A DNA stretch of 64,000 bases. It comes from Marsupella aquatica. Taxonomy: Eukaryota > Plantae > Marchantiophyta. The notes beneath the pieces are model-generated. The model searched no databases, had not been told where the DNA came from, and saw only the letters and a list, made by a program, of their open reading frames with translations. The position numbers and the translations under genes were made by a program. Of the stretch, positions 20,747 to 58,764 are shown piece by piece. The first letter of the stretch is position 1, and each line of letters opens with the position of its first letter. The DNA is taken from positions 28,158,210 through 28,222,209 of the forward strand of contig OZ316893.1 in the NCBI GenBank assembly GCA_973895155.1. The letters run 5' to 3'.

Positions 20747-23700
20747 ATGGCAACCTATGCATCGGACCATGATGGGGGCAGGCATCATCGGCACAGAAAC
20801 CATCATCATCATAGGGGGACGTATGATGAGTCGGATAGGCGAAGGGATGACTCGTGTGACGATGACGATGAGCATGGCGGTAGTTCTCACCGACATAGAC
20901 ACCATCATCGGCATAGGGGGAGTTCAGCTTCATCGGGCTATAGGAGCAATGACAAGCGGCAGAGGAGGAGGGATGACGAGGGAGGGAGGAGGAGGGATGA
21001 CTCATCCTATGAGGACCATGGTGGGGGTACTTACACCTGATGCAGAGATGACCATCATCATAGGGGGAGGGACAACCTGTCGGACCGGGAGAGAGATTAC
21101 TCACCAGACATGTATGATCGATCTAGGCGTCACCGATCCAGGCGTCGTCAACGCAGACATGGTTCCGAGGGTAGGAGAGGCTGGAGCCCCCATCATGCTG
21201 ATGGATTTGGAGAGGCCATGGCTGCTCTTCAGGGGATTGGGCCAATTCGCAAGATGCCTTGCCCTTGCAGACGATGCAAGGGTGTTGTCTTACACGAGAG
21301 GACCACTGTCCTTAGCCATTTAGGGATCCATGGTCGTTACACCCCCCCGACCCGAGAGGTAATACAATTTTGTTGGGTATTGCAATTATGATAACATCTC
21401 CTTCCTTGAATTGTTTTTTGATTGTCATATTCTGAACTTGTTTTGGTGAACATGTGGAACAGATTCCTGTTGTAGTGCGATCTTCGCCTGTGGACCGCTT
21501 GAGAGACATTGCATATCGTGCACTCGCACCACTCGTCCATCCATCCGATTTTCCAGCCACATTGAGGGAGATAGACCGTGTATTTCGGAGGAGGAGGAGA
21601 GTGTTTAGGATGCACCCTATTGAGAGGGGAGTAGTGGTGACCACTAGACCCCGATCGATTGAGTCTCGTCCACCTAGGATTGTTCCGCCCCGATGCCCTT
21701 TTCTTGATGCATCGGTGTCCCGGGCACCGAGACAGTTGCGAGGGAGAGCCTTGGACATCTTAAAGGACTCCTTCCCAGCCCAGTTTGGACTCCCTATGGA
21801 CCTCCCGCTTCGGGAGCCTATTATAGTTTGGGACCGCCCATGGGTCATCCTCCCCTCCACATTGGGGACTCATGTAGGACTTGGAGTATTTGCTCTTGTG
21901 GATATCGTGGTCCCTACCAGTTGTGCACCCGATGATTTGCCTCAGTTGTTTCCATTCTATGGGCCCAAGTATTCGGCGGCAAGATGGCGCATCTTGTCCC
22001 GACAGTGCCCAACCTTTAGTCGATATGGCATGTCACTAAAGTTGGACCCTAGGTATGCTCAGATTGATGGTTACCCACCTCGCACGGGGAACTTGGCGGG
22101 TTACATCAATAGCACTATTGGTTCTCGGCGTTCAGGGTTTAGGCCAAATGCTGAGTGGCACGAGTTCCATGACCAGAGTCACCCTCGTTTGCCTGTAGCA
22201 TGCACGCATTACATCTTGACACATGCTACCCGCACCATTAGAGCAGGGGAAGAGATTCTCGTAGATTATGATTGGCATTGATGTTTACATGTCTACATGA
22301 CATATTCATTATGGGGTGACCCTTGCATTTTTCATTATTGATGTTTCACTGTAAGCTTTATCACGGAAACCCTTTCTCTAATTGTTATTTGTCATTGCAT
22401 ATTGAAAACTCTAGGATGGTGTACATATTACTCCCACACCTCACCCATCAATGATGACTACATCAGCCCGTGCCTTTCACGTACGTGCCACCTTACATTT
22501 CTCAGACGAGGAGGATGCTGAGGGTCAGCCCCTTGACCATGATGAGATGGACGATGAGGATGAGGAGTACCATGATGCATATGATGGAGAGTTGGATGAT
22601 GATGGAGAGTTGGATGATGATGTTGACGATGAGGGAGATGAGGGAGATGAGGGAGATGACCCTATCCTTGAAGAAGATGCCTTTGCCCACCTTGTTGACG
22701 TTCACTTTGGACCTCATGCACCTGACGCCGAGCACCCTATCATGGAAGTGGATCAAGAAGATTGGGATCACTTGGAGACTGAAGCCAGAACACCACTATT
22801 TGAGGGATCTCCATCCTCACGGTAAGGTTGTCCTAAAATTATCACAACTCTGGAATTTCATCCAGTGAATATTGGGCAGTCTAAATTGTAGTGCCAGGCA
22901 TGCCATCTAGCTACTTGGACTAACTGCAAAAAGTCTGGTGTTTGTGGTTTTGCAAATCCAGGTTGGGTGCAACTTTGTTGATGTTGAATTTGCAAGGAGT
23001 TTTCAATGGTTCGGATGTCCATACAGATGCACTCTTCCAATTGTTCCATGGCAAACTCTTGCCCCAACCAAACACTCTCCCTGGATGTGTGAGGGAGGCT
23101 AAGAAGTTGTTAGCCTCAATTGGATTGGCTTTAGAGACTATCCACATGTGCCCAGGTGGGTGCATCTTGTATAGAGGGGTGTACAAGGATCACACTCACT
23201 GCCCAGAGGAGCACTGTAGGCTTCCACGGTATCGACCAGACACCATTGGAGACAAGATTGCAAAAAAGGTAATGTTTTCCTCAACGCAATGTGAGAACAA
23301 GAAAGTCCAACTTTTAACGTTGCATTCTTTCAAACAACGTCGTACATGACTATGTAATTGATTACTTTACGTCGTCCATCTCACTTTATGTCTTTCCACC
23401 TGACGTTTTTTTGTTTTTATGTCGTATGGGATGCAGTAACTAACGTCGCATGGTACATTAGGGTATGAAACGTCGTCCTTTACGATGTTAGTTTTAATAA
23501 TACGTAGTGTGGAAGGACGTTTATTGTGATTGTCGTCAAATTGACGATGTTACATTGGATCTGGCAGGTTTTTCGTTATTTCCCAATCACTCCCCGACTT
23601 CAGCATCTCTACCGACAAAAGCACTTATCCACACTACAGACTTGGCATGTGGAGAACAAATCCCCACCAGGGATAATGCAATACCACCAAGATAGTCCAG

Positions 23701-26408
23701 CGTGGAAGCACATTGATGCCACTTGGCCAAATTTTGCCTAGGAGCCAAGAAATGTTCGTTTGGGGTTGGCAATCGATGGAGTGAACCCATATAAACAACG
23801 ACGGAAGCCTAAGTCCATCTGGCCTGTTCTTTTGATAAATCAAAACATCCCTCCATGGTTGGCAATGAAGAAGGGTCATGTGCTTCTATTAGCTATAATT
23901 CCTGGACCCAAGGCCTGTAAGAATCCTGATATCTGTTTGGCTCCAGCTTATGAAGAGCTACATAATCTATGGGAGGTTGGAGCAGTGACAACAGATGTCA
24001 CTCGTGAACCAGGCAATGGTAGGACCTTCAATATGAGGGTGATGATCACTCATTGCACCACAGATGGTCCAGGTAATTCATTGGGCAACCCAATGACTAT
24101 TGTTTGCACAATGTCATGTACAATGCAAGTGTTGGGGTTATTTGTGGTCTGAACATGGTTCAATGAAATGGCAGGTATGGGAACAATATCTGGCCTGAAG
24201 GTGGCAAGTTTTTCAGCTTGCCCTTCATGTGGCCCAGAGTTGCGTGGGAGGTACTCAAGACTACTGCACAAAACCACATATGAGGGCAGTAGGGTCCGGT
24301 TGGCAATGGATGACCACTTGCGACAAAACACAACACATTGGGCAGAGACTGAAGTGCGGCCATGTCCTAATGGCCCTTCAGCTGAAGGACAAATTCAAAT
24401 GGCAGAGAAGGTGGAAGCAAAGTTACTAAAACCCAAGGATTGTGGAGTAAACCGACGCTCAGCTATGTGGGACTTGCCTTATTGGAGGGTAAGTGATAGA
24501 AGTGCATGGTTCCTTTACAGCAAATTAGACCAATAAAATTCTTAATTTAGAGATTGCAACTGATTCAATATGTTATTTCAATTTCTAGAGACTCCAGGTT
24601 CGATGGTTGTTGGACCCCATGCACATTGAAGTGAATGTTGCTAAGAACTTGGTGAAGCACATTTATGGGACGAATGACACTCGTGGAGTCCGAGAGGATG
24701 CTGAGAGGGTTGGAGTAGTGAAGAGTTGTTGGATAACACGTACTGGGGAGAAACCTCCTGGTCCTTGGATTTTGCCAAGAGAGGTTTTGAAGGACATGAA
24801 TGGGATGATAAGCGAGATGAAGTTCCCTAGCCATTACGGAGCTGGTTTTCGTGGGTGCACTACAAGGAATGATCACATACCCCCAATAGGGTTGAAGTCT
24901 CATGATTATCACAAGTTGATACAGCATGTGCTACCAGCAGTCTTGCGTTGTTGTGATGATTCCCGGGAGCGTCGTTTACTCCGTCTGACTATATATGAGA
25001 TGTGCTCCATTTTTAGGTATGCTAACGTACCCTCTCTTCCATTGCTCTCTTGCAAGTTCTTGTTACCGCTGAAGGAGCCATGTAATTCAACAAGTATTTC
25101 AAACTCATTTTTCTATGGCCCTATGTGGATCTGATATACAAAATCTTTGATGGTTTTGAGGAGGAACATAGGTGGGTATGCGCTAAGGAGATAAAGGAGT
25201 CTGAGATTCCTTTGATGAGAGAGAGGTCAGCTCGCGTGATGTGCAATATGGAGAAGGTGTTTCCCCCATGCATATTTGACATGCAATTGCATTTACTATG
25301 TCACTTGGTGGATGAGGTCGCGATTGCTGGTCCTGTCCATGCACGTTGGATGTATTGGGTAGAGCGCTTCATGAAAGTGCTCAAGTCCATGGTGCGTCAA
25401 CCAGCTCGACCAGAGGGAAGTATGGCAACGGGGTATATCATGTCGGAGTGCCTCTTTTATTCCGGAGGGATGATAGGAAGTTTGGACACAGAAGCTCCCA
25501 CAGCTTGGGAAGAGGCACAAGATGATGACAATGGTGGGTTGCGTTTGATGGGTGCATCAAAAAAGCGTTCACTACATGACAACATACTTCGCCTACAGAT
25601 CCACAATTATGTGTTGGGAAATCGCCCAGAGATGTCTCAGTGGAGGGAGTTGCATAGGTACATATATGCAACTCTATATAACTGTTAATCTAACAGTAGA
25701 CGTTGTTCTACATTCTATGTGTGTAGAAGTTAGAGTGGGTTCAAGGAGCACTTCTTTGGATTGTGCAATATTCTCATGGATTCATACATTTTTTGCAGTG
25801 CATTCTTGGAGCAGCAACCAATAGTTGCACAACGGTATGCATTATTTCGCGTATGGGCATTGGAGCGCATGGATAGGCTCCTTGCAGAGCATGGACCCTT
25901 ATCCATTCCCATTGATGTACAGAACATCATTAGGGGACCAGGGTTGTGGGCAACGACCCATACACACATGTATGAGTCAGGGCACCACTTTCGCACTTGG
26001 AGGACAGATCACATGAAGAAGAGTACATGTAACTCAGGAGTGTTCATGTTGACAGACCCAGGTGATGTTGAGATTCCCTATTGTGGCACTATATTGGATA
26101 TTTTAGACGTTCACTTTGGGTCATTTACTACTATTGTGTTAGAGGTGCGGTGGCACAAATCCATCATGTCACCTCCACATAGAGCCACCATGGTGAAAGA
26201 TGAGTGTGGGTTCTATCGGGTAGACACGACTCGTGTAGCACCATCCGGGACTGAGGTTAGTGACACTATAGTATTTCCTAGCCAGGTGGATCAGTGTATT
26301 ATGGTTCTGATGCACACTATGAGAGGATGGTCCATCGTCATTCCCATCTTCCCACGATGGAGGAAGGGTTTGATGGCATCAGTAATTGTAGATGATATGG
26401 ATCCATGA
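20747..26408 (+). pseudogene. CACTA transposase (TnpD-like: transposase-associated Zn domain, Transposase_21, DUF4218-like regions), 8 predicted exons
   Basis: Exons ~20747-21358, 22415-22821, 22962-23268, 23568-24072, 24175-24488, 24589-25016, 25172-25657 and 25799-26408 with GT-AG junctions. Motifs CPCRRC..HL, IHMCPGGCILY, EPRNVRLGLAIDGVNP, LDPMHIEVNV, GLKSHDYH, GPVHARWMYWVER. Premature TGA at 21038 and TAG at 23739. Confidence 0.9.
21463..22281 (+). CDS. SET-domain (lysine methyltransferase-like) exon inside transposase intron 1
   Basis: GLGVFA (motif I), FYG, IDG...GNLAGYINS, PNAE, ATRTIRAGEEILVDY (motif IV). Frame is intact. Acceptor AG at 21461-21462 is phase 0. Confidence 0.8.
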   Translation: MPVVVRSSPVDRLRDIAYRALAPLVHPSDFPATLREIDRVFRRRRRVFRMHPIERGVVVTTRPRSIESRPPRIVPPRCPFLDASVSRAPRQLRGRALDILKDSFPAQFGLPMDLPLREPIIVWDRPWVILPSTLGTHVGLGVFALVDIVVPTSCAPDDLPQLFPFYGPKYSAARWRILSRQCPTFSRYGMSLKLDPRYAQIDGYPPRTGNLAGYINSTIGSRRSGFRPNAEWHEFHDQSHPRLPVACTHYILTHATRTIRAGEEILVDYDWH

Positions 26409-30400: not shown

Positions 30401-33400
30401 ACACCCTCAAGAATCAGAAGAGGGCCAAACAATACCTGTACCGTTTCTTCATGCACATGGAGATTGTGAAGCCAGATTACTTTTGGGCATACCCTGCTGC
30501 TTTCCAAAAGTGGATCGTTGTTCCTGAAGGAGACATACTGGCCAACGTGTATTCAATGTATCCCGTTGAAGGGTGTCTTCCACCAAGAAAACTGTCAGAA
30601 TGGGAGAGAATTCATTGTCCTTGGTATTTGGACACCGATAGATGGGACTCTCCATTCGGAGACACTGAGAAAGACGCATTTCATAAGCTTTCAAAGTCTC
30701 AGGTCCCTCCCAAGTTTGTGTCCGACATGAAGCAGGGAATTGAAGGTGATGTGAGCAAGTCGGCGGCAGAATTACAAACGGTGTGCGAAACTACGGTTGT
30801 TCATGTTGACCGAAGTCGCAAACCTAGAGCCAAAGCAAAAACCGAAGCTGTGGCACCGAGTACATCAATGCGGTCCGCCAAAAAACGTAAGTTGTCATTC
30901 AGCTTGTAGCTTCACATTTTGGTTAGGGCCAGGCGCTGCTATATGACTATGTCTATTGGTTTGTTTTTTCAATTGGTTTGGACAGCGCCTGGCGCTATTA
31001 TTCAGCATTGAATAAATTTTGCTCTTTTTCCTTTAGGTGGGAGAAAGTCTGACGTTGCAACCGACGAAACAAAAGTAGATGCGACTCCGGAGCCTTCTGA
31101 AGCCAATACCGGTGCCCGTCAGACCCAGTAACTCCAATTGACAAAGCGAAAGAGATTGTCCCTCTTGATGCAACCAGTACAAAGAAGAAGAAGAAAAGGG
31201 CAATTCAAGCTAGAGAATCTTCCCGAGATGATGCCACTGGAACTGGTGTTCAGAGAGATGTGGGAACCTTCAAGAGCAAATCTTCTAGGCATTGCATGGT
31301 GGAAACAAGTATCCAAGAATTTATTGATACTGCTTTCAACAAAGCAGCGAAACCAGATTGGGTGACTGATGCAGAGAAATGGGGAAAGGACTTAATCAAG
31401 TCGGGTTCCCGAGAAAGGGAGTAATCAAAGGAGGAAAAGAAAGATTGTGACGCCACCGGTACGGCGGTTAATGAGTGATTCGGTCTAACTGTGCTTAGCA
31501 CACGCGTTAGGAGTGTCTTAGGCCGCTATTATTAGCATAACGATAGTATTTAGGTAATCATTATGGGTAGGACATCATTAGGCAATAAGGGGGAATTCAG
31601 GTTCGGATTGGCGGCGGGTCGCTATTCGCACACCCAGGTTACGAGCGTGGAGGGGCCCCTCCCTCAGGTCCGTATAACAAACTTAAGGAAGCGGCCACTG
31701 ACACGTGCTGACTCAGACCGGCGAAGTGGCCGGTACACCACAAGCGTGAGCGGTTCAGCCTATGGGCGTCGAGAAGACGTCGGGGGATCGACAAGCCCTC
31801 AAGGTATAAAAGGGCAGCCAACCCTTTGTAGTGCACCAGTCCATCAGTCCACGCGCCAACCCCAGCTCTCTCGTTTGCTCTAAGTTGCCACTACTATCTC
31901 CTCTGAATGTCGCACACGATCCTCTCCAGCTCGGCCATTCGATTCTGGACGCAATTCCTATCTACCGGAAGGCACTTGGCCGACTCATTGAAACACGCCA
32001 ACCCGCGCCGATACAAAATCGAACGCAAGTACGAGAGAGCCATCCGCCTAGCAGGACGACACCACTACATCCTTAACTTTGACTACCCGTCTCAGAGCGA
32101 GCTTTACCGACCAGCAGAGGTATCTGGGTACTTCTTCAACGCAGACAAATATATCGGTTTGTGGGAAGCATTGCTTCGGTTTCCGGACGAGGTCTTCAAT
32201 ATCCCGGGTACGATTGACTTGCAACGACATCACTTTGACCACATCCCTGCTCAGGTTCGGGCTATCATCAACAGCAAGTCTAGCACTACCCGTTCGACAA
32301 GGTCGTCTGCACTTGCTTTGGAGAACTTCTACCAGCATCTACAGAGCTTCATGGGAACTCGGCCATCAACCAACATGACCAACTCAGTCGAACCCGTACC
32401 TGTACCCATACCCGTACCCATACCCATGCAACCTCAGGCTCAACCTCAGGCTCAGCTTCAGCTTCAGCCTCAGCCGCAGCCTAGCCAAACCCCACCACCG
32501 ATCGCCCAGCCAGCACAAGTACACTCCGTCATCAACGCTGTGGATCTTAGCGATGACGACGAGGCTACCCCACCCTTGACCAGGCGGCCCAGAGGAACAA
32601 GCGCTTAGGGGGCCGACACTATATCGTCCCCACCCCCTGCTCTGACCCCAGGAGCGGCCCCGACAGACAACATGGTGACCGTGGCCGACCCGGGCCCGTT
32701 ACTAACGGCAGTGGCATTACCCAGGCCCGATCGGGAGGATGGGGAGGTGTCACCTTCCCCGAGCCAGTCACGGGGAAAGAAGAGGAAGGAATCCACCACT
32801 GCATCCGGGTTACCTTTGGTCATGGTAGCCGTAGCCAAGGTGACGATGCACCACATGGGGGAAAACGTTCACAAAAACATCCTCCATCCCAAGCATGTGG
32901 TGTACCTGAAGACTCAGGGATTCAAGCACCTCGCCTCCCTCCCCTGGAACACTTGCAGGTACTATGGGGAGGACATGACGGAGTTCATCAGGAATTATGA
33001 CGACGCGCGTCAACATACTCGGTTGCGGGGAAGGAGTATGTCCCTCATGGAAGAACGGCTCAGGATGATCTTTGGGTTACCCAAAGGTGACCATCGAGTC
33101 GAATCACGGGCTCCCGGGGGCAAGGGAGCCAAGTACCAATCTTCAAGTTTTCCCTCAGAGGGAGCAGTGGACAACGGGTTCGTGATGAGGACCTGTCTCA
33201 TCCCCGAGATAGCTGAGCGACTGGAGTTCCAGAGGTACGCCCTCCACATGATGGAACCCCGGGGAGAGATCTCCGCCGCCCAGGTTATCCAGGTCGAGAA
33301 CTATCGACCTAGGAGGTGGGCGTCGTACTTCGCTAAGAAATTCCATGAAGAGATGGAGCGGCGAAGGAAGACGCTGTACATTGGCGGGAAGGCGTATTTC

Positions 33401-33716
33401 GCTAGCCACATCGAGATCATTCTTGAGTGGTACGCTCTTTTTGATCAATGAACCCTTCCCCGTGTCAACGTTACAAAGCTGGTCCCAGCTAGGTGGGTTT
33501 TCCCAGCCTTGGAGAGACGGCCCCAACCCGAGGCCCGAAGTCCAGCAGACACGCCAGCTTCACCCACCCCACCTCCACAAGTAGCTGTAGTCGTAACCGA
33601 GGAGGTACCGGATGGGTCGGTTGTCGCAACCGTTGATGCGACCCAACAAGCTGGGCTAAATACAGAAGTCGGTACGGCGGAGGTCTTACCCGAGCCCGGT
33701 TCTCCCAAAGACCCAC

Positions 33717-36700
33717 TGTGGTGCGTCCCATGGCTCCCTAAATCCAAGAAACCCCCCAGCTCAAGCCGATTCCTGCAGGTTTCGTGCTTGGCGAGGCCGT
33801 TTCCGCGGCTTAGCGGCATGGGACGCTGCTAACTTTCTACTACTACTATTAACATTTTACACACATATACTGGACAGATCCTTCATCGGGTCATGAGATA
33901 CGTAGCCGGCCTAATATAGGCCTTCCCCTGTCTTCCCCTGTCTTCCCCTCCGTCTTGTTAGGTATGTTTGGATTCCGCCGCCGGAATGATCCCCAATAGG
34001 CTTGGTTAAGCCGCTAAGACCTCTCTCAGCTCGACACATCCAACTCTCACTCCCCTGCTTACTTTCCTTCCTTCTGTTGATGTGGGCACTCTTCACACAA
34101 GTTAATGCGACACACAAATAGCAAAATGACTCATTCTGACTGAGTCATACCATGCACTTGCCATACAAACAGTACATCTCATACACAAGTTCTGCGAACT
34201 AAGCCGTGAGGCCAACTCTATTCAGCTCTTAGGCATGAGGAAACATGAATATACACAAGGGTCACTGTATGACTAACCGAGAGCTTCTCGTACTACTTGA
34301 TCCCAGCCCGGCTGGTGCAAACTAAAAACTTGCTAAAGAAGAGGCCCTGAGCTCCCCGCTGCCCAGGTACTTATCCTGGTAGTGGATCCGCCATTCTTTG
34401 CATCGTAAGCCTAATCTACTTAACAGTAATCTACTTGCCCGAATCTACCTATGTACAGCAAGGCAGGAGCACAAGTGTTGCTCCTACCAGTGGGACCGCA
34501 ATCCCACTAAGCTAAGTGTCAGGGCCGCTCCTGGTTCTGATCCTAATCCTAAACGTGGAGATCCGCGCCCGCCCTGCCCACTCACGCCTCCTCCCTCCAC
34601 GTCCGCCCTCCCTAAAAGGAACGGCGCCCTTGCACCGTCACGACACCGGTGGTGGATCCTCAATGGACGCCCCCAACACTTCCTCCTCAGCCACTGCCGT
34701 TGGCCCGCCTACTGACAGATTACCTGCCCTTGACCGAGTCAACTCTCCATCGGCCTGACTGGGTCCACCTTCGGCTTCAGCCTCGACACCGGCCTCGGCA
34801 ATACCCACGGCTTCGGCCTCAGCCACTCCCACGGCTTCGGCTTCAGCCACTCCCACGGCTTCGGCTTCAGCCACTCCCACGGCTTCGGCTTCAGCCACCC
34901 CCACGGCTTCGGCCTCCCCTTCCCCTAGGGTAGTTGGATCCTTAGCCGTGACCCTGTCTGGGGTCGGTGCTGGGTCTACCTCCTTGATCACCACGGCCTG
35001 TGAAGTCGTATTACTCCTTGACCCTGGAGGTTTCCGCTTCTTCTTCGTTGGTGGCTCGGCAGCTGGTCCCTTCCCCTTCCCACTTACTTCCGGCACTGGT
35101 GCAGTTGACGCGGCTTGTCCTTCGGCAATTACCACCCCTGGTAACTGGTTTGTCCCAACGGGAGATGGACCTGCTACAGCTAAGCATTTAAATACTGCGG
35201 CTTGTTTCTTCAGCCGCTCTGTTTGGTTGTCGGCCCGCCGCTGTAGGTTCTCCATCTTCCTCGTGATTTCCTCCAACTCCTCTTGGGTTTCATCCAGGTC
35301 CTTACGTGCCCCCTCCAGCTCGTTTTTGGCCTCCTCCTGCTCCCTGTGGGCTTCCTCCAATTCCTTCTTCAAGGTAGCCCTCTCCTCCTGGGTTGCTCTT
35401 AGCTCCTTGTCGAGCTCTGCAATGATGACAGACTCCATCTGGTTCATCTTGGCGTAAGTCTGTTCGAGCATTTCGTCCTTCTCCCTTAGGTCGGCCTTGA
35501 AGCTGGCCGTCAGGGACGCAAGCTCCTGCTGCAGCGCCATAATCCCTTGATAGGATTTCCCTAACTCGACCTCCTTCTGCTCAAGGGCTCCGCGGATTTT
35601 CTCGAGCTCCCCTTTCAACGCCCATTCCTTTCTTTGGGTCTCCGCCATGGCCCGGCTGTTGGCTGTTATGTGGGCCTCCTTTGTATTCTTCAGCTCTTGC
35701 TTCCACTTCTCCCTCTCTTTGATCGTGTCGGCCAACTCTTCCTGCGTCTGAGTCAGTTTATCCTTGATATTCTGATTATCAGCCTGCGCGGCGTCCAACT
35801 GCCCCTGCATGATGTTCAGCTCATGTCGTTTAATCCGCAGTTCATCTTGGGCTTTCTTGGCCGCCCTTAGATCTTCAATCTCGGCTCCCATCCTCCTAAG
35901 CCATCGAATGACCTCGTCCTTCTTGCTTCTCTCTAAAGCCACCGCTTCTTCTAATTGGTGCTTCTCCAACTGCTCCCTATGGAAAAAGGGTCCTACCTCC
36001 AACTCCTCTCCAAAGATGCCGAGCGCAAGTTCCCCACACATCTCACCATACTCCATGGCTCTATTCTTAGCGTAGGTGGAGTAAGTAGAAGTGATCGGCA
36101 TCGCCCATCGTGGCCTCTGCTCCCAAGCCGTCCTGCGGATCTCTTCAATCGTGGCTAGAGGTTTGCTTCCTTTTTCGGCTAGCCGCCTGATGTCCTCCGG
36201 CCAATCTCCTCCTGGTAAATCCTTTTCCTTAGCCAGGGCGGCCTCTTCCTCCTGCTTGATTCGCTCCTGAAATTCCTGCACCGTCTGTTTTATGCCGTCG
36301 AAGCTCGGGGGAGCAACATCTGGTGGGGGAGACTCAGGGCTACTCTGCTGGTTGGGGTCCCCTCGCACTACCCTTGGAAGTGTGGGGACAAACCGGCCAC
36401 AGGTCCTTACTCCTGGAACGTGATGGTCCGACCCATAGCCGGAATTATCATGGCTGCAGTCCTCCACTGCCTCCTCTACCTCTTGGATGTCCGGCTTCTC
36501 CCTCTCCTCTTCATCGGTAGGAGCTTCAGGCAATTCTGCCTCAGATTCGGAGCTTGAGGTTCCCACGTACATTCGAACACCTGGCTTGGATTCCGGCCTG
36601 ATTCTCTCCTTGTCTCCAGCAAAGGGGTTTTCTCTTGTGAGCCGGTGTAGGCCTACTTCTGTAGTAGTGTCCTGCATTGTTGCCGTTGCCGTTGTTGTTG

Positions 36701-38430
36701 TTGTTGCCGATGCCGATTTCTTTTCTTTCTCCAGTAGTTTCAGCAGACTCTGCATGCCTGGTTGCTGCATCGGCAAGTCTTCCTTCTTGGGCCTAAACAC
36801 CTGCTCGATCGTAGGACTAACAGGTGGTGGAGGCTTCTCAGCCAACGGCCTCGGTGTTGGAGCTTCCTCGGGTGCCCTTACCTGCAGGGGAAGTACCGGG
36901 GCAAAAGTCTGACCTCTGGCATACCGGCACAACAGCGGCATGTGATAGCCAAGCCGCGACATGCTCCCCATGCCGATTACCTGCTGCTCCTCCTTTAAGA
37001 TCTTCTTCAATTGGTTGAGGAGGTACCCGTTGTAGTCCCGGCTTGGGTCTGGCCTTTCTGCCAGATAGACATGTGCCTTGCCGATCTCTGCCCTCGGCAA
37101 GTTACAATGCATGGTCACCCGCAAGAAGTCGATCATCTCTCCTATGTGCGGGTTGGTGCAGGTGTTCCGGAAGAAGCCATTCTTCGTTGATGGCCCGGGG
37201 AACGACCGGAACTCCTTGTCAGGCAAGGTCTTCCTGGTATCAACTTTGGTCTTATTGCCCATCAGCAAGCCAAACACTTCGGCAATTACCTTGGGAGTAA
37301 GATAGAAATCCTTCCCATATATCCTCGTGCAATTGGTCTCGGGTTCCCATGACCCCACGAATTCTAATAGGTCTGACTCCGGTACCTCCGGCTTCAGCCA
37401 TGGTAATCTTACAAAGGCCTCCAAGCCGGATCCGGCCATGAAGCCTTGGTACTTCTTGGTCTGCATGGCCGTAAAGCATGCATCCTCCTCCCGTGCAAAA
37501 TGTAGTTGCACCTCCACCGGTAGGGTTGCCGCCCAGCCCTTCCAGGTGTCATCCCTGGTTGGAATGGCCTTGATGGGATCGACCTCCTCCTCTTCGGCTT
37601 CTCCCTGCCTCCTGCTCTGCTGCTCGGCTGGCTTCTTTGGTGCCGCCGACCTCGTTCTTTTTGCCGGGGTGGCTTCATCGTTGACGGCTCCCTTCCTCTT
37701 CATCTCTGCTGTCGTGGAGGTTTCTCCTAGCACCGTTGCCTGGGTCCACCTTTCCGTGCTACCCTTTAATTCCCAGTGTATGTCGTTGCAGTTCTTGATG
37801 GCCTCTCGGATGCCGACGACGCTGTCTTTGCAAAACAGAAGATCGTCGAGTTGATTGGAAGTAGGCGTCCACAGGAACTCGTCCTTGATGAGTTCGCCTC
37901 CTAAGAAAGCCGTCTTGTGCAGCTCCCACAATCGAGCGAGCTCCTGCCGTTCTCGAGCTGCCCTTTCTGACTCCTCGTCCTCGTAAGTCTTGATGTACTC
38001 AGTTGCCCGTTCGAACAGGCATCCCCAGAAATGTGCCGCTTGATTGACGTTGCTCATACCCTCCTTAGGTCGATCGTCGGTATCTACTCTCTCCCCGAGT
38101 GCTTGCCTAAGCAGCTGACAGTAGTTGGCCTCCCGTAGTCGTCTGCCTAGTTCGTGCTTGCAAATGAGCCACCATCTCCTGCAAGCGCTCCTTACCCCTC
38201 TCCTCTGTCGGTCCTTCTTCCCGTTGATCCTTCCTAGCCGCCGACGCTTAACGCGCCCTAACCCTAATCGGGTTTTCACCCTTAGCCTTACCTCCGGCCT
38301 CTGCCCGGGTTCCATGGTTGCCCCTAATTGTTTATATTTTCCTTGTTTTGTCACTATACTAAGGTGTTCCTAGGGTGCCTTCCTGCTTTACCCACTTAAC
38401 CGGCCGAGTGATTCCTGTCTAGGCATCACA
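33717..38430 (-). mobile_element. TG..CA solo-LTR-like unit, 4,714 bp, carrying an intact 1238-aa ORF
   Basis: Termini TGTGGTG..CATCACA. TSD CCCAC at 33712-33716 and 38431-38435. A second partial copy starts at 43755. Confidence 0.92.
34638..38354 (-). CDS. 1238-aa protein: plant-mobile-domain-like region, long coiled coil, AEAVGVAE repeats
   Basis: Uninterrupted ORF. LEFVGSWEPETNCTRIYGKDFYLTPKVIAEVFGL resembles the PMD core. E/K/Q heptad region. 24-bp tandem repeat at ~34790-34915. First ATG probably ~38315. Confidence 0.8.
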   Translation of the reverse strand: MTKQGKYKQLGATMEPGQRPEVRLRVKTRLGLGRVKRRRLGRINGKKDRQRRGVRSACRRWWLICKHELGRRLREANYCQLLRQALGERVDTDDRPKEGMSNVNQAAHFWGCLFERATEYIKTYEDEESERAARERQELARLWELHKTAFLGGELIKDEFLWTPTSNQLDDLLFCKDSVVGIREAIKNCNDIHWELKGSTERWTQATVLGETSTTAEMKRKGAVNDEATPAKRTRSAAPKKPAEQQSRRQGEAEEEEVDPIKAIPTRDDTWKGWAATLPVEVQLHFAREEDACFTAMQTKKYQGFMAGSGLEAFVRLPWLKPEVPESDLLEFVGSWEPETNCTRIYGKDFYLTPKVIAEVFGLLMGNKTKVDTRKTLPDKEFRSFPGPSTKNGFFRNTCTNPHIGEMIDFLRVTMHCNLPRAEIGKAHVYLAERPDPSRDYNGYLLNQLKKILKEEQQVIGMGSMSRLGYHMPLLCRYARGQTFAPVLPLQVRAPEEAPTPRPLAEKPPPPVSPTIEQVFRPKKEDLPMQQPGMQSLLKLLEKEKKSASATTTTTATATMQDTTTEVGLHRLTRENPFAGDKERIRPESKPGVRMYVGTSSSESEAELPEAPTDEEEREKPDIQEVEEAVEDCSHDNSGYGSDHHVPGVRTCGRFVPTLPRVVRGDPNQQSSPESPPPDVAPPSFDGIKQTVQEFQERIKQEEEAALAKEKDLPGGDWPEDIRRLAEKGSKPLATIEEIRRTAWEQRPRWAMPITSTYSTYAKNRAMEYGEMCGELALGIFGEELEVGPFFHREQLEKHQLEEAVALERSKKDEVIRWLRRMGAEIEDLRAAKKAQDELRIKRHELNIMQGQLDAAQADNQNIKDKLTQTQEELADTIKEREKWKQELKNTKEAHITANSRAMAETQRKEWALKGELEKIRGALEQKEVELGKSYQGIMALQQELASLTASFKADLREKDEMLEQTYAKMNQMESVIIAELDKELRATQEERATLKKELEEAHREQEEAKNELEGARKDLDETQEELEEITRKMENLQRRADNQTERLKKQAAVFKCLAVAGPSPVGTNQLPGVVIAEGQAASTAPVPEVSGKGKGPAAEPPTKKKRKPPGSRSNTTSQAVVIKEVDPAPTPDRVTAKDPTTLGEGEAEAVGVAEAEAVGVAEAEAVGVAEAEAVGVAEAEAVGIAEAGVEAEAEGGPSQADGELTRSRAGNLSVGGPTAVAEEEVLGASIEDPPPVS

Positions 38431-41400
38431 CCCACCGGTGGCTATCCCGGAGAACCGGACATTGCTGCAGGAGGACACTCCAGCCCCTTCCAACGTTACG
38501 TCCCCAGGGCTGGATGTCACTGCCCCGGCCCCCGCGCGTGTTGACGTCTGCCCGTGCCGAACTCCGGACAGGCACAACCTGGACCACCCGGAACTCTTCG
38601 TACCGGGTACATTTCTGAACGGGCTTCTGGGAGATTTCTCTCATCAAATTTCCCGGGATACCGGGGAGTTCATGGCCCGGAAGGTAGCCTGTTTCTTCAA
38701 TCAGGAGTTGGTTGCTGTAGTAAAGGCAGGTCGGGCCCAGTCAGAGGCCCTTTAGAGGATAGAGCGGTACCGGGTGGAGTCCGTGTACCTAAAGAACGAA
38801 GTTGCGGCTCAAGAGGCTGAGCTTCGGCAACTACGACCCAAGGTTGCAGCCGCCGATGAGTTGTTAGCAAAGGCGCACGCTCTTACCGCCCTAGCCGAAC
38901 AGGCCAAAGCTGGGAACGAGGCTGAGATTACACGACTCCGGAACCAGATTGACAGTTTGAAGAATCAAACTGTCACCTAGCAGAAAGACCTGGAGGAGGC
39001 CGAGGAACGGGCCCAGCGGGACACGACGGAGATAGCCACGCTGCAGGCCGAGGTGGCGCGGCTCCAAACCGAGGCCGAGAAGCAGGACCAGCTGGCGGGT
39101 AAACTGACGAGCGATGCCCAGCAGCTGGAGGAGGCATGTCAGGAGGCAGCCGAGGAGACGGACGCGGCGAGGCGAGAGAACAAATCTCTGCTGGACCAGG
39201 TCCAGCTCCTCAAGGCGGACAATGACAGGCTTCGAAGGCAGCGGGATGGCCGCTCCCATTCAGGCGGCTCTGGCAAGCGTACCAGGCATTAGCAGCGGAG
39301 TAGGAATAGATTAGGATTAGGACTAGCTTAGTCAGGCTCTTGGGACAGGCACCTGCCTTAGGTACAGCAGCGCTGCCATGCTGTCCAGCCTGCGTAGATT
39401 AGGATCTTCTAATAAGACACAACCGTTTCCGGCCTGACTGTCAGCTCAGTTAGGACCTTAGTCAACGAATCTTCAGCGAGAGGACACCCCGTCCCTTGGC
39501 CCTTAGTATTTAGTGCACCCCTCGGTAGAGGCAGGGGGTTTTAGTTTCAGAGTTGGACGTCCGCGGTATGTGCGGGGAGTCCCGACCTCTGGGAATGAAA
39601 GAGTACCAAGGGGGGGGTAGGACTAAGCTCGTCGGGCGAGTGCGGAGCCGGGCTCCATTGTAGTGTGCACCCTCGGCCTTGAACCTGTTCATTCCGGGGC
39701 TGTCGGGTCAACTAAGTGTACGCATATGTTCCCTTTGTAGTAAAATCCTTTCCCATCATTTTCCTTCGTGTAAATCGAGATTGTATGCATGTGCACGTGT
39801 ATGTGTGTGGGTTTCTCGTATATGGGTGGCAGCGCCAGGCCGAACGCACTACCCGAGACGTGCACAGGGTGCAGCTTGTGGGTAAGTGGTTGCAAGCACG
39901 GGTTGAGGACCTGTATCATCGAATCCGGATCGAAGGCGGACAGCATGAAGGCTCAGAAGCCCTTAAGCCGGGGTCGATCCTGCTATCGACTAAGGTACGT
40001 TCCGGCGGCGGAACACAAACCATACCTAGGAGGTGTTCGTATTTAGCAGTATGCGCACTTAGCGCTAGTTTACGAGAATAAGGTGCATTACGTGCTTCCC
40101 TTCCTACCCGAACCCTCAGATTTACGATGGATGTGCCCGTCTAAGCTGAAGTCTGAGTTAAGGCCGAAGCTGACGACGTGACAAAGATCATTTGGTGTCA
40201 ATGCAGGATTCATCTATCTTCCTACTGGACTTAAACCTATGCTCATGGACCGTCGGGTTCCAAAGTGGAATGTACCAGACCACACAGTTCCCAATTCTTT
40301 CTTCAAAGTGATGGACCCTTTCCTTTCTGATGATGGCATGCTTGCGATCTTGTATTCAGATGACCATGACCAGGTCTTGCAGGTCATTTCAGCATGCCAG
40401 CAGTCAAAAAAGTTCCATTGTGTCAATTCTCACAATGTCGTCATGTCTATGCCCATGTACAGAGCAAAGACCGATATTCAGGTACAGATCATTGCATCTC
40501 TTGTTTATTGTTAGCGCCCGACACTAATTTAGTCTTTGCTGTAGTTCTCGAAACATTACCCGTCGGTTGATAATTTGAGCCAAACGTGTGCGATGCGTGT
40601 AGGTATTTACCCTTAGGCTAGACATATTTTGTCGGACTTCTTCAAAAGGAAGGTACCAAAGGATCCAAGGTTTAAGCCTCTATCAATAAGTGAAGATCCT
40701 TCAATCTCTAACTTGATTGGGCTCCCAACCTTGAAGACAGATCATTGCCTGGAGTTGGATTTTGCAAGGAACGCCTGTCTTTTGGTTGGTTTTATGGGGG
40801 TATTTACAAAAGACAGGAACCAAGAAACAATAACAAGAAACGGTTACTGTTACCAGGAGAATTGGAGGTAAAAACCAAAAACATTGGACCAAAAAAAGGA
40901 TTCCAAACAATCAAAACTAAAGCCCATTTGAGTCATTTTCATTAAAACCATCTAATTTCGAAGGAAATATCCCGTCGGGTAGTCCGACCCAAATTTGCGA
41001 TGATTACCAGCGCCCAGCGCTGGTATCAATGAAGCGAATAGAAAGCTGGTAGGGTTTCATAGAAGAAGGAAAAATCAAACAAAAATCTACGTAACCTCAA
41101 TCGAGAAGACAATGAGCGGCTGAAAATGAGGCAATTCAAATCAACAGAGGTAGGGTCATACAACAACAAAATCCGGATCTCATTGCTAGTTTAAACCTCA
41201 AAATCCCAAAATCCATGTTTAACGCCATCGAGAGGAAAACTAGACATTGGAGATTGAGCCGATCACAAATTCATTTACTTCAAAAATGGGCAAAAACATA
41301 TCACCGAGATTACATGGGCGACGGAAAGCAATGAGTATAAGTAGCGCCCGACGCTAGCTTAAAACTACAAATCCCGCCCTTCCATGTGTAACGCCATGGA

Positions 41401-42707: not shown

Positions 42708-43754
42708 TTGGATTGTCTTGAAGTGGCTGAAACAATGTTGAGGAACTTTTGTGGTAGTCAAGATGACTTGAATAGGAGGGATGATAAGTTATGGCGTCGA
42801 CAAACTGCAGCTTGTAGAGCTGCTGGGATGACAAAGATAAAATGTCCTTGCTACATTCGCAACTGTAGGGGTAATCGTGTGAGTCTAGGGACAGTCAAAA
42901 AGCACCTCATTCAGAATTCTCGCCACCCATCGCAAAGGTATTGGTGGGGAGAGGACTGTGACTCTTTTGATGATGAGTGGAATGCACGCTGCATGGAGGG
43001 GGATGGTGCATTTGAGGGCCCTATGGACAATGCAAGATGTGCAGAGGAACTTGCCAATGATATGGATTGTGGCATAGATATCCCTGGGATACTAGAGGAC
43101 TTGGCAATACCAAGTGAAACTGCTAATGCCAGTGAACCTGTCCAAGAAACCACTGTAGAGGAGCCCACTCTGCAGGAAAGCAAAGAGGGTCTCTTCAACA
43201 TGGATGATCTTCTGGAGGCGGATAGTACATCTGGAGAAGCAACACCTCAGATTTGGGACCAATAGGCAGAGGAGAAGATGATGCGAGCATTTGAAGAGGC
43301 GTGTGCCCCTTTGTATGAGGGGTCCACTACTTCCCAATTGTCATTTGTGTTGACATTTCTAAACACATGCCATAATCATGGTTTCACCAACTCTGGAGTT
43401 GATGAACTGCTTTCGTTGATGGGGAAACAATTGATGCCTGCTAAGAATCTGCTGCCTAAAAACCTGTATGCATGCAAGAAGCTGATCAGTCATGCTGGCT
43501 TGGATTATGTCAAAATTGATGCTTGTGAGGATGGATGTGTCCTATTTAGAAAGGAGCATGCTCATTGCAAAGAGTGTCCACTGTGCAAAAAGCCTAGGTA
43601 TAAGCAGGTTGGACAATCAAAGCAACCTGTGAAAGTCCTTCAACATTTCCCCCTCATACCCAGGTTGAAACGAATGTACAGGTGCAAGGCAATTTCAGAG
43701 TTGATGACATGGCATAAGGACAATAAAAGCACAAATGGAAAGGTCCGGCATGTT
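42708..43754 (+). pseudogene. N-terminal part of a second CACTA transposase, truncated by an insertion at 43755
   Basis: KIKCPCYIRNC...VKKHL, APLYEGS, KIDACEDGCVLFR..CPLC..RY, HFPLIPRLKRMY...MTWH. In-frame TAG at 43263. Confidence 0.85.
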
Positions 43755-44691
43755 TGTGGTGCGTCCCATGGCTCCCTAAACCCCAGAAACCCCCCTTCAC
43801 AAGCCGATTCCCGCAGGTTTTGCGCTTGGCGAGGCCGTTTTTGCGGCTTAGTGGCATGGGACGCTGCTAACCTCCTTCTACTACTACTATTAACATTTTA
43901 CACACATATACTGGACAGATCCTTCATCGGGTCATGAGATACGTAGCCGGCCTAATCTAGGCCTTCCCTTGTCTTCCCCTCCTTCTTGTTAGGTATATTT
44001 GGATTCCGCTGCCGGAATGATCCCCAATAGGCTTGGTTAAGCCGCTAAGACCTCTCTCAGCTCGACACATCCAACTCTCACTCCCTTGCTTACTTTCCTT
44101 CATCTATTAGTTGATGTGGGCACTCTTCACACAAGTTAATGCGACACACAAATAGCAAAATGACTCCTTCTGACTGAGTCATACCATGAACTTGCCATAC
44201 AAATAGTACATCTCATACACAAGCTCTGCGAACTAAGCCGTGAGGCCAACTCTATTCAGCTCTTAGGCATGAGGAAACATGAATATACACAAGGATCACT
44301 GTATGACTAGCCGAGAGCTTCTCTTACTACTTGATCCCAGCCCGGCTGGTGCAACTAAAAACTTGCTAAAGAAGAGGCCCTGAGCTCCCCGCTGCCCAGG
44401 TACTTATCCTGGTAGTGGATCCGCCTAATTCTTTGCAGCGTAAGCCTAATCTACCTAACTGAATCTACCTATGTACAGCGAGGCAGGAGTACAAGTGTTG
44501 CTCTTACCAGTGGAACCGCAATCCCACTAAGCTAAGTGTCAGGGCCGCCTCCTGGTCCTGATCCTAATCCTAAACTTAGAGATCTGAGCCCGCCCTGCCC
44601 ACTCACGCCTCCTCCCTCCACGTCCGCCCTCCTTGAAAGGAGCGGCCCTCCACCACCATCATGGCAGCGGTGTCTGTTCCTCAGTGGACGC
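43755..44691 (-). mobile_element. Terminal ~0.94 kb of a second copy of the 33717-38430 family, cut by the Gypsy insertion at 44692
   Basis: Near-identical to 33717-34670, starting at the same TGTGGTGCGTCCC terminus. Confidence 0.92.
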
Positions 44692-45240
44692 TGTCGTGAT
44701 TTTCTCTTAAGTTATAAAAAATTATTTGTTTTAATATGCTATAGGTTATATAAGTAATTTAGTAGTTAGATTATTAAATTTAAACTTTATTAAACTTCTT
44801 TAGCTATATTAACGGACTATAGTAGTTCCACCAATGCATATGAGTAGTTCCACCAACTACAATAATATTCACCAACGCATAGTAGTTCTACCAACGCACA
44901 GTAGGTCCACCAGCGCATAGTAGTTCTACCAACGCACAGTAGGTCCATCAACGCATAGTAGTTCCACCAACGCATGGTAGTTCCACCTACTAAAAGTAGT
45001 TTCACCAACTATGAACAGTACTAGCACACTCTTAGGTATTAGATGTTTGACACTTGGCCTTCATCCAAGTGCTTGGGCTTGATCCATGCCCTCTTGGTGT
45101 GCACTATAAATAAAGTGGTGAGGGGCACTCTCCCCTCATTCCGCAGTGTTTATCATTCAAGGTTGTGAAGCTCTTTTGTGCCTTGAACATAGTAGTGGGG
45201 CGTCCTTTGGCCCGGATAGCAAAGGAATAGGAGAGCCATC

Positions 45241-53061: not shown

Positions 53062-53822
53062 AAGCTACTCGCAAGAATGATGCTATAACCGCAGCTGCAT
53101 TTCTCTTTGAGCACATTATCACCCGGTTTGGTTGTCCTTTGGAGTTGGTAAGCGATAGGGGTTTGCATTTTCTTAACTCAACTATTGAGTTAATCACTGA
53201 CCTTTATCTTATCAAGCATCGCAAAACTACTCCTTACAACCCCCGAGCTAATGGCTTAACCGAGAGAGCTAATGGCATTATGGGCAAGATTCTGAATAAA
53301 ATGGTAGAATCTCACAAGACAGATTGGGATGTGAAGCTCCATTCTGCATTATGGGCTTACCGCACCGCTGAGAAGATTACAACTCTTCACACCCCCTTCT
53401 ATCTGACCTATGGCCTGAATAGTATTATTCCAATAGAATTTTCGTTACCAACGGAACGTATCTTGGTACCACACCGACTCTCTCCTTCAGATAGTCTCTC
53501 ACATCGGTTTTCCAATATTGTTAAATTAGAAGAAGTTAGACTTTTAGCATTAGACCATACAGTCACCATTCAGAACCAGCGTAAACTTGCTTATGATAAG
53601 AAGCTGCGCGTAGTGCAGTTAGATGTTGGTGATTTAGCATTAGTCTTTGATTCTCGTTATATGCTATTTCCTGGGAAACTTCATACTCATTGGATTGGTC
53701 CTTACCGAGTTACACACATCTGGGATAATGGTTCAGTTTCATTGACTACCTTAGATGGTCACCCACTTAACACTAGAATCAATGGGTTTAGGATTAAACG
53801 GTACTATGAGTCTTCCATTTAG
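53062..53822 (+). pseudogene. C-terminal half of an Athila-like integrase
   Basis: ATRKNDAITAAAFLFEHIITRFGCPLELVSDRG...ANGLTERAN...LWAYRTA...PGKLHTHWIGPY...INGFRIKRY. Confidence 0.88.
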
Positions 53823-53844
53823 AATTCCACTTGGGACAGGTTGC

Positions 53845-53860
53845 AATTTAAGTGGAGGGC
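53845..53860 (+). promoter_or_regulatory. Internal polypurine-tract-like motif, duplicated at 57332-57347
   Basis: AATTTAAGTGGAGGGC occurs after the integrase stop and again just before the LTR. Dual PPTs flanking the env-position ORF are known for Athila elements. Confidence 0.75.
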
Positions 53861-54209
53861 GGTAGTTATACTTAGTTAGAATTAGTGACCCTCCCTAGTA
53901 AGTATTCGGCATATTTTTATTTTTTATTTTTTTTAGTTACTTCCAGTTTTTACATTGGACGCTGTGAAAAGCGTCCATTGTAACTCGACGCTGGGGAAGC
54001 GTCCACTTAGTTTACAAAGGACGTTGTGCAGAGGTCCGCTTTTGTATTAGTTCAGTTGCATGAGACGCTGTGAGCCGATGACTAGGCGTCTTGTACAATG
54101 GCGGATTGCGATAGCTCAACGGGACGCTGAGGAGTAAGCAGTCGCGCTTCGCCCTAGTTCACTATGGAACACGATTCTCACTGAGCTTACGGAGCTAACA
54201 AGTCACGCG

Positions 54210-57200
54210 ATGGCGGAGACTGAGCTGACGACGCGACCAATACTCGCAGACATTCCATCGAATGCAGTGCATAGGCGGCAGTTGAAGACGGCTCTGGCAA
54301 AAATGGGCTTGAAGAAGCTGCTTCAACTTCCTTGGAAGATTTGCGAATTCAGCCTTATCGATCAAGGTGTCTGGGACGCTGAAGAAAGGATTGGTGTGCG
54401 CTCGCGTCCCAGTGTTTGGACTGAAGCGCTCATAGCGAAGGTCTATTCGACGCCGATGGAGGGCGAGGATTTACAGAGGGTTGATTGTGAGCCTCGGGTT
54501 TATGTAGAATCCTTCTTCGCTCCAGGATCTTTCAAGAGGCGGAATGGATGGCTAGCGGCGGACTGCTTAGATAATTCTCTGCAGCGTCTATTTTGATTTC
54601 TGGCACCAATTTTCTACCCAGAAAGCCAGACGCGCATCACTCTTTCGTTCGCTGCAACGGTGATCTGTTCATTAGAACAGACGCAGTCTATCAATTGGAC
54701 GAAGGTTTTGCACCGAGTAATTCATACTCAGGTCAAAAATTTTCGTAGCAGGCTGAAAACGGGGAAAATAAGGTGTACCTACTTGGCCCCTTATTTAGCT
54801 CACATTTACCATAAGTATGACTGTCTGCTTGTCTTGGAAAAAGATTTTTATCGCAACAATCAGAGAGCATCTACCGGTGAAGCAAATTATATGCCTGAAG
54901 TACGAGAAGTCCGAGCCAATTCCACAGTGGTAGAGCTATGTGCAATACTCGACTGTGAGGAACCTGAACTGGTGGGTGAAGTTTGGAAATTGAAAGAGAC
55001 AAGAGCATCAGCTGAAGGGAGTGACGATCCGATTCTTCACCAACCAAGAGAGGCTCAAGTTGCCGAAGATGTTCCTTCAGCAATGCCAACAGGGTTGGAG
55101 CATTCTATGTCACCTCGACTCTCGTGTTCACCTTGTGCTGCCGAGCCTATTTATGATGTTGATCAGGATAATTCTGCTTCTCGGATGAATGTTGAAGATG
55201 AGGTGAGGGTGGATGAAGAAGGTTTTTCAGGGGAACCTCTTCAACATTCTACTGCTGAGGACGAGTATGATGGATTTACTTCTACCCCTGTTTTGGTTCC
55301 CATAGAGGCAAATAGTGATGCTTTGCAGGCTTTACAGGAGTATGATTCGTCCGACTCTCTTAGTTCTAGCCCAAATATAGGTGAAATCCCTCTGGTCCAG
55401 GAGTCAGAAATATTAAGCTCAGAAATTGTGAAGCTGGTTAAAGTTGATTCGGAGGATGCAATTGTGGATATAGACGAAGTAGGTGAACCAGTGACTTCTC
55501 CCCAATCTGTCGCAAGATACCCTGCCTGGTCTACACCTGGTTCACTCATATCGATTCCTTTGGATATAACTAAGGAATTAGATGAGGCAATAGCCGCGAT
55601 AGGAGCTCCTTCATTTCCGCCTGTAAAATGGGTTTCTCCTGAAGATGAGTTGATTGAAGGAGGCTCTGCTGGTTTTCCGAGTCGCAATCAGGTATCTGGT
55701 AATATGGGTATATCTGTACCCATATTGGTACCCGAGACACCCGCTTCGACAACCAGCTCAGCACCAGTTTCATTGGCTACAAACGAGGATAAAAACATTC
55801 GGGAGGAGTTTTCAGTGACGTATACTCGAAAATCTTGGAAACGGTTGCGCCATGCTATCAGTCGACAGATCTTTCCTGAAGCATCTTCCCAGGATTTTGA
55901 ACAGGGAGAAGCACCTATCGGAACAGACGAGCTACCCCTTCCTGTACTTTTGGCAGATCGAACTAACCAGGAAGTCTCTTTACCTAGCGATAATTTTAAA
56001 GAAGAACTTCCTGTTTTAGTACCAATGCATCCCACTGCAGATCAACCAGCTACTGTTGCAAGAGAAGAATTTGAACCACTGGAGCCCGAACCTTCTGCTC
56101 CTTCGTCTCCTGTTACATTGCCAATTCGACCAGTTAAGGAGTCAGTGATTCCTTCCGCTATGCCAGATGTAATTTTCCGTTGGATAGGAGCACCAAGTGA
56201 TGGAGAAGAAGACGAAGACCCTCGCATTATCAGAGTACCTCCTCGACTTCGGCATACAGTGGATTTGCCACCCCGAAATCCTATCCCTAATTTGGCTTCA
56301 ATTCACAGGTGGGAGAAGAAACATTTTCGAGTAGCTTTTCGACATCTGGAGATGGAGAGCATTTTGCAGCAGCAGCAGATTTTGCCAATGACATCCCATC
56401 CGAGGATTCGTAGTTTGATTCGCACATATGAACCTGGGAAGGCGGTTCCTCCCATTGATAAGGACAGACGACATAAGTTTTCGGAGTTCGAAATTTGGTG
56501 TTGGGTGTATATGCTTCGACGAGCTCAAGCTCCATTTCCGCCCCTTGTGCCGGAAATTCCATGGCCCTATCCATACTATGTTTGGGTTTGTCCTGGTGGG
56601 TTTGCTATTCCAATTAAATATGAGAAGAAGCTTGTTAAGCTAAGGGAGCAGTTGATTACAAAACAATGTATGCTACCGGCTTCCCAAGGGTTCAAGTCGC
56701 TTAGGTGTTTAGCGTTCCTACCTATTATTCCTTCTTATCCGGATGTGATTATTCAAGGTGTTTTATCTAGGACACAGATTTGAAGGACACCATTTATGAG
56801 AGATATCAAACGGTGTTGTCATTTATATGTATATAAGCCGTTACTTTTGCAGCATCCTGCAATTGTTTCCTTCTTTCTCCTTCGAATTGATATTTATCTG
56901 CTCATGTGGGACATCAAAGCTACTATGGATTGTTGGAATTCTTTACCCCGTGCTTTCCAACATTCCTTTGAAGGCAAGATCAAACTGGGAGGACATGCTA
57001 TTCAACACTTTGTTATTGATCCAGGCTCTCGAATTAATTTCCTCTCCCACAGACTGTGCCAGCAATTTGTTCATCAAGAAGTACAACCGATATCTGCTCA
57101 GATATCAATCGATGGACGAATCATTAATCTTTGGGGAAGAGTTAAAGGAGTCCCAATACAGATCGGAGAAGAATTCCATGACCTCGATTTTTATATTCTG

Positions 57201-57272
57201 GATTCGGATATCTCCCAACTCCCGTCAATGATTTTGAGCACTACTTGGATTATTAAGCCAGAATATTATTAA
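54210..57272 (+). pseudogene. Env-position accessory ORF (~1020 codons): PMD-like N-terminus, acidic/Pro-rich linker, C-terminal retropepsin-like domain
   Basis: ORFs starting 54210, 54660 and 56796 share one frame, split only by TGA at 54594 and 56781. GLKKLLQLPW...NGW..C and FVIDPGSRINFLS...MILSTTWI. Confidence 0.7.
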
Positions 57273-57349
57273 TGAAGAACATGTCACTCGCTTCTGATTC
57301 AATTCGGTCATGTCTTGTGGGGACACGGCGAAATTTAAGTGGAGGGCTA

Positions 57350-58740: not shown

Positions 58741-58746
58741 TCTTTT

Positions 58747-58764
58747 TGGCGCCGCTGCCGGGGA
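58747..58764 (+). promoter_or_regulatory. Athila-type primer-binding site
   Basis: TGGCGCCGCTGCCGGGGA following the LTR end. Confidence 0.85.

Follow-up and report, generated by a model that had tools for sequence, protein, structure and literature searches.

Can a solo long terminal repeat (LTR) of a plant retrotransposon hold a complete gene? The question is raised by a 4714-bp unit, here called U (positions 33717-38430), in a 64,000-nucleotide stretch of the liverwort Marsupella aquatica (contig OZ316893.1, positions 28,158,210 to 28,222,209), referred to below as the window. A first-pass annotation of the sequence offered two readings of U: either the LTR itself is coding, or the unit belongs to a separate class of integrase-mobilised single-gene elements. 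Our analysis favours the former and disfavours the latter. We consider it likely that U is a solo LTR, formed by recombination between two 4.7-kb LTRs of a Ty3/gypsy retrotransposon and carrying an intact gene. A solo 4.7-kb LTR is favoured because some copies have a neighbour resembling a primer-binding site (PBS), because both ends of U are family boundaries, and because the head of the unit is unlike its tail. The parent retrotransposon was probably of the Athila/Tat type, which the length of the target-site duplication (TSD) and the type of PBS would fit.

Boundaries, layout and copies of the unit

On the forward strand U begins with TGTGGTG and ends with CATCACA (six of seven positions inverted), and CCCAC flanks it on the left (33712-33716) and on the right (38431-38435). 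The probability that two random 5-mers of the window match is 0.001. Contigs representing the empty site, which join 33710 to 38430 and omit 4719 bases (4714 + 5), were present in all four public runs examined. As these contigs bridge the flanks minus 4719 bases, U is an insertion with a 5-bp TSD, and the ends and duplication proposed at first reading were borne out.

The LTR sense of U appears to be the minus strand, with the 5' end at 38430 and the 3' end at 33717. Read in this direction, a 115-bp head (38316-38430) with a candidate TATA-like box (38336-38331) near the first ATG is followed by the open reading frame (ORF; 34638-38315) and by a 921-bp non-coding tail (33717-34637), which is likely to be the promoter/R/U5 part of the LTR. 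The ORF is intact, as first described, but the 1238 amino acids (aa) then given count from a GTG at codon 6; it encodes 1225 aa from the first ATG, spans 1243 codons from stop to stop, and may truly start at a later ATG. The chance of an open frame this long is about 1e-24, and 78% of U is coding. The unit contains no internal direct repeat pair, in agreement with the first-pass annotation, except that a 24-bp tandem array (34769-34930) encodes EAEAVGVA repeats near the end of the ORF. An Rfam scan of the tail returned a single match, at chance level, and no tRNA genes were found in the window.

U is a mobile, high-copy family in several related organisms. Its words occurred in part in 13 public runs of 10 studies, under four organism codes, with at least half of them in six runs, and tens of thousands of contigs cover the unit evenly in runs X1 and X2. 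The run richest in U may stem from the sample of the window itself, and no RNA run was listed as containing the unit. Within the window, a second copy of its 3' 950 bp, U2 (43755-44691, minus strand), is 90% identical and has the same end; a nested gypsy element that begins near 44692 truncates it. U2 is inserted in a CACTA-like transposase fragment (42708-43937), and the LTR of the nested gypsy element contains a 19-bp tandem array (44819-45013). In run X2, the joints 34571>33717, 36361>33716 and 38430>34988 apparently place U copies inside other U copies; these joints and the position of U within a related unit (H, described below) suggest nesting in related LTRs. Three patterns (the end of U, the hairpin motif of its tail and a tRNA end) had no match in collections of metagenome, viral and prokaryote sequence.

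Evidence for a terminal repeat and competing explanations

Both ends of U are family boundaries, as read depth falls at 33717 and other copies end at 38430. Depth to the left of 33717 was near zero in three of four runs (X2, X5 and X4), the fourth, X8, having given no contigs. Contigs continuing past 33717 into other letters numbered 29, 14 and 3 in these three runs, and their flanks agreed at 0.39, 0.41 and 0.57, compared with 0.37, 0.41 and 0.57 for unrelated flanks; most therefore represent independent insertion sites. At the opposite end, one X6 contig stops at 38430 with 106 other letters beyond, and a joint in X2 leads from 38430 elsewhere into U.

The flank consensuses nevertheless share words at equal offset, seven in a row between X2 and X4 and eight of ten between X2 and X5, which together occurred in 1-5 of 100,000 random sets. 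On the ORF strand of the X2 flank, the terminal CA is followed by four T and then by 18 letters, 16 of which are complementary to a CCA-ending 18-nt plant small RNA (PMC8747174). Allowing for 360 trials, the chance of such a match is 8e-6 to 1.2e-4. By simulation, an agreement of 0.39 fits about 4 of 29 contigs having the PBS-like neighbour, where one contig can represent many copies. A minority of U copies thus seem, on this indirect evidence, to have a tRNA PBS-like neighbour within 0-5 nt behind the CA end. The small RNA is probably the 3' end of tRNA-Asn.

These properties resemble those of Athila/Tat elements. Neumann et al. defined the PBS as a TGG 0-5 bp behind the LTR, with two differences allowed, and reported tRNA-Asn as primer in 12% of Athila, 15% of TatII and 4% of Retand elements, as well as 5-bp TSDs and LTRs of up to about 5 kb for Athila/Tat (PMC6317226). 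Ogre LTRs measure 1.9-6.5 kb (PMC6431247), and an AT-rich spacer is described at Athila LTR/PBS junctions (ATHILAfinder). The same layout of CA, T-rich spacer and TGG PBS is present in the window at an Athila-like junction (58747). Of the features tested for a solo LTR, U has short inverted TG..CA termini, a TSD in the range of 4-6 bp and, by indirect evidence, a PBS-like neighbour in some copies.

Several observations weigh against a coding solo LTR. One of the mismatches in the PBS-like site affects the TGG triplet and is seen again in X4, which may make the site an imperfect one, and the PBS-like 10-mer is not in excess in the window (5 matches, a number reached by 9 of 100 shuffles). None of the five LTR-like copies in the window has gag-pol next to it. 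The PBS-like neighbour, moreover, identifies an LTR end at 33717 and nothing further. As to the placement of the gene within the LTR, TATA-like boxes before the ORFs of both U and H permit either a second promoter that serves the gene or a position in R/U5 in place of U3.

The alternative that survives best, although we think it improbable, is that U derives by deletion or recombination from relatives with a short LTR, roughly equal to the tail, and an internal 3' extra ORF, the truncated ORF-plus-LTR form having then been amplified. Published accounts of plant Ty3/gypsy elements place their extra ORFs internally (PMC7264820; PMC6317226), and a related domain is internal at 54138-56783 in this same window; the limited reach of the PBS-like neighbour also leaves room for this origin. 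However, head and tail showed no likeness in either U or H (scores of 23 and 24, shuffle maxima of 37), so the 115-bp head is not a leftover of a short 5' LTR. The TG end at 38430 is common to independent copies, and H independently shows the same build. Summed tail/ORF depth ratios in four runs were 0.82, 1.26, 1.36 and 0.64; this is a weak measure, but the tail shows no excess over the ORF, which disfavours a short LTR. Loose ends near 34570-34625 proved, among the best-supported rows listed, to be conserved variants and not random flanks.

A separate class of single-unit elements, comprising U and H, never with paired LTRs and moved by a borrowed retroviral-type integrase, is in our view very unlikely. 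Both complete units of the window are TSD-flanked singletons, the flanks at 33717 are mostly unrelated, and the lack of adjoining gag-pol would be expected. Yet a PBS-like neighbour common to three runs is unexpected for singletons, the inverted repeats at the termini measure only about 7 bp, the ORF encodes no integrase or transposase, the tail is related to non-coding LTR-like sequence, and there is no known copying route for such a unit without a primer site. Integrase-type DNA transposons of the Ginger/TDD kind have TG..CA ends, a 4-6-bp TSD and no LTR pair, together with long terminal inverted repeats and an integrase. U shares their end type and TSD size and lacks the other two properties; with no inverted repeat pairs of at least 40 bp, termini of about 7 bp and no integrase domain, it was rejected as a member of this group. 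Least credible of all is that U is the coding solo LTR of a non-autonomous (LARD-like) family whose LTRs enclose no gag-pol and whose sole protein is that of the LTR gene, for which the imperfect look of the PBS-like site and the failure to tie any internal coding sequence to U may be cited, but no positive evidence.

The encoded protein and related units in the window

The U protein consists of a basic N-terminus, a conserved globular domain (aa 240-480; 36876-37598, minus strand), an acidic and proline-containing linker, a coiled coil and the repeat tail. The coiled coil, as noticed at first reading, was recovered as heptads at about aa 820-1050 (35166-35858, minus strand) by a crude score. 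Pfam assigned no family to the ORF or to its domain and detected no gag/pol or integrase domains, consistent with the earlier statement on gag/pol. The profile comparison proposed at that time was negative: neither PMD (PF10536) nor PF20167, nor DUF1985 (PF09331) or ATHILA (PF03078), matched the ORF, its domain, or any of 20 aligned members.

A HMMER search with aa 240-480 against 1.84 billion representatives gave 18 matches, one of them spurious (P0005, a bacterial repeat protein, which was removed from alignment A1). Of the 10 matches looked up, the two with a species label are gene models of Calypogeia fissa, which points to a leafy liverwort as the probable host. Word-based protein searches at E 0.001 found nothing for aa 1-520 and nothing among longer proteins, while a word-based search with the alignment returned two Calypogeia proteins and so added a third gene model to the first two; a sequence search of the PDB gave no matches, and Foldseek found nothing at E 0.001 in the pdb and viral sets. 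Among 48,161 chains, the VANC21-DNA structure (PDB 9LNK) ranked first for both predicted models, with a match that spans most of the domain at only 9-11% identity. Language-model leads for the domain (Atlas) were PF20167 (0.89), ATHILA (0.87), DUF1985 (0.85) and PMD (0.85).

For the core domain of U the prediction is thus a fold like that of VANC21, an anti-silencing protein of plant transposons, and for the protein as a whole a VANC/PMD-like DNA-binding domain combined with a coiled coil. The first-pass annotation's PMD-like domain would hold at the level of the modelled fold (VANC/DUF1985/PMD) and of the language-model leads, with the likeness running through VANC21, but not as membership of a Pfam family. 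Of 17 variant sites listed within the ORF, 8 fell at third, 7 at second and 2 at first codon positions, a sample too small and too selected for an estimate of dN/dS.

U lies within a host unit, H (31446-40183, plus strand), of 4.0 kb without U, which has the termini TGTGACG..CGTGACA, an AAGAT duplication and no LTR pair. Its second reading frame, ORF2 (32609-39292, plus strand), is broken up by the U insertion as well as by three in-frame stop codons, and encodes a domain with 24% identity to that of U over 182 aa (E 1e-15), then a coiled coil, before a 0.9-kb tail. The preceding ORF1 (31907-32608, plus strand) is intact, encodes a 233-aa protein that matches no Pfam family and is rich in Gln and Pro at its end, and stops one base before the ORF2 frame; U has no counterpart of it. 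H2 (5-766, plus strand) is a second copy of the H 3' tail, at 94.5% identity, and meets tail to tail at 766/767 with Y (767-2894, minus strand), a non-coding LTR-like relative whose true end and TSD are unreadable there. The possibility that a TGG directly behind position 766 serves H as a PBS was dropped, since this TGG does not read as a usual tRNA end and belongs to Y on the other strand.

Y had been taken for an ordinary LTR resembling the U tail. That status is not proven, one end abutting another element, and the likeness is essentially one motif of 30-41 bp. A hairpin-like motif occurs in the tails of H2 (583-609), Y (1139-1164), U (33961-33986, minus strand), H (40000-40026) and U2 (43992-44017), five matches in the window compared with none in 100 shuffles. 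Three LTR-like families with little else in common have kept it, at a distance of 150-400 bp from the 3' end. Its closing pair has changed between copies and folding energy was ordinary in three of the four stretches folded; the motif is a candidate packaging or dimerisation signal or protein-binding site. The H tail is, in addition, collinear with the 3' half of Y (scores of 83 and 55, shuffle maximum of 36), and a 16-bp word is common to the H tail, 230 bp past the ORF2 stop, and to the stretch just behind the Y TATA box (1 of 1000 shuffles). Given the shared motif, the collinearity and this word, Y looks like the non-coding member, and H and U the coding members, of one terminal-repeat lineage. 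When single copies were scanned for repeated short motifs of the kind that a VANC-type protein would target, 7- and 9-mers were not in excess in the U tail, H head or H tail, and the 5' part of Y had a repeated 7-9-mer.

An Athila-like element at 53064-58764 contains an integrase and an internal extra ORF (54138-56783, broken), the domain of which is distantly related to that of U (pairwise hhalign 68%, E 5e-5); comparison of the next fragment yielded no match. Identical 16-mers resembling a polypurine tract are present before the extra ORF (53845) and after it, directly before the LTR (57332). Priming at the upstream tract would place the extra ORF in U3, a route suggested by analogy with this element. 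Its 3' end has a protease-like ORF (56784-57272) and a 1.4-kb LTR, followed by the PBS and gag of the next element, so that tandem Athila-like elements share one LTR. Elsewhere in the window, tandem repeats of 295 bp and 56 bp lie near 7 kb (6685-8100), and an ORF with a SET-domain match (21436-22281; E 2e-5), possibly a transposon-carried SET gene, is located just upstream of CACTA-type transposase fragments (22415-26408; DUF4218).

Proposed mechanism, known systems and significance

If U is a coding solo LTR, the minus-strand order of TG, ORF, non-coding tail and CA, followed in some copies by a tRNA PBS, would correspond to the 5' LTRs of full-length elements. The ORF, formerly a 3' extra ORF, would sit in U3 upstream of the LTR promoter, a placement that rests on the 16-bp word of H and Y, and would have entered the LTR once an upstream polypurine tract came into use. 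Each transposition would then double the gene, and each solo-LTR deletion would leave one copy. It is quite possible, although somewhat less likely than not, that the protein oligomerises, binds the DNA of its own family and keeps the family transcribable in trans, as VANC does for VANDAL. More doubtful is the broader proposal that the U3 of liverwort Ty3/gypsy elements has received, more than once, a VANC-like anti-silencing gene with sequence specificity, and that solo LTRs in their hundreds therefore persist as complete genes that protect or activate the family in trans.

ORFs in retroviral U3 are known in the form of mouse mammary tumour virus sag and lentiviral nef. As proposed for U, these genes lie in the LTR, occur twice per provirus and are kept in a solo LTR; they differ in belonging to animal retroviruses and in encoding much shorter, unrelated proteins with immune functions. 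The extra ORFs of plant Athila/Tat (OTA) elements comprise ATHILA ORF-1 (PF03078), PMD (PF10536) in Ogre and TRP28 (PF04195) in Retand (PMC6317226; PMC7264820; PMC11963269). Like the gene of U, they are accessory ORFs in elements with a 5-bp TSD and a tRNA-type PBS, appear from the Atlas leads to share its broad fold group, and have a proposed DNA-binding or regulatory role. Their described positions are upstream of gag or, downstream of pol, ahead of the 3' LTR, often in antisense, whereas the ORF of U is in sense orientation inside a TSD-flanked terminal unit and matches no Pfam family.

VANC21, a DUF1985 protein of Arabidopsis VANDAL21 (PDB 9LNK; PMC5735166; PMC13547354), is likewise encoded by a transposable element, has a globular domain and a coiled coil, and is the best structural match to U. 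In contrast to U, VANC proteins come from Mutator-type DNA transposons and are termed dicot-specific in these sources; the identity of 9-11% is low, and short motifs show no excess in the non-coding tail of U. The host PMD proteins MAIN, MAIL1 and MAIL2 are reported to have a fold resembling DUF1985 of VANC and to counteract silencing by way of promoter motifs (bioRxiv 2024.09.27.615353), and VANC to derive from MAIN-like host proteins in dicots (PMC13547354). Unlike U, these are host genes, and their PF10536 profile fails on U.

Transcripts contained in maize LTRs are termed non-coding (bioRxiv 2026.05.08.723830), and what extra ORFs do in plant LTR elements is, according to PMC7264820, not known. 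No plant LTR with a large ORF was listed in the literature searched, a set that lacked most papers behind subscriptions and, from PMC6317226, the table of individual elements. The parts of this system are known. Their arrangement appears to be undescribed: in two families, a plant LTR would enclose a 3.7-kb gene whose product has a predicted VANC-like fold. The VANC21-like fold offers a direct hypothesis for the role of extra ORFs, which a self-contained 4.7-kb unit with both the gene and candidate target DNA makes testable, and U also bears on the origin of the VANC/PMD fold. Annotation tools would take such LTR copies for host genes; two of the homologues are Calypogeia gene models.

Solo-LTR formation is regarded as the host's way to delete retrotransposon genes. 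With a 1225-aa gene retained inside it, an LTR would evade such deletion. If the broader proposal above is true, it would give the VANC system an equivalent among retrotransposons, well beyond the dicots, and the purging of elements to solo LTRs would then amplify a gene.

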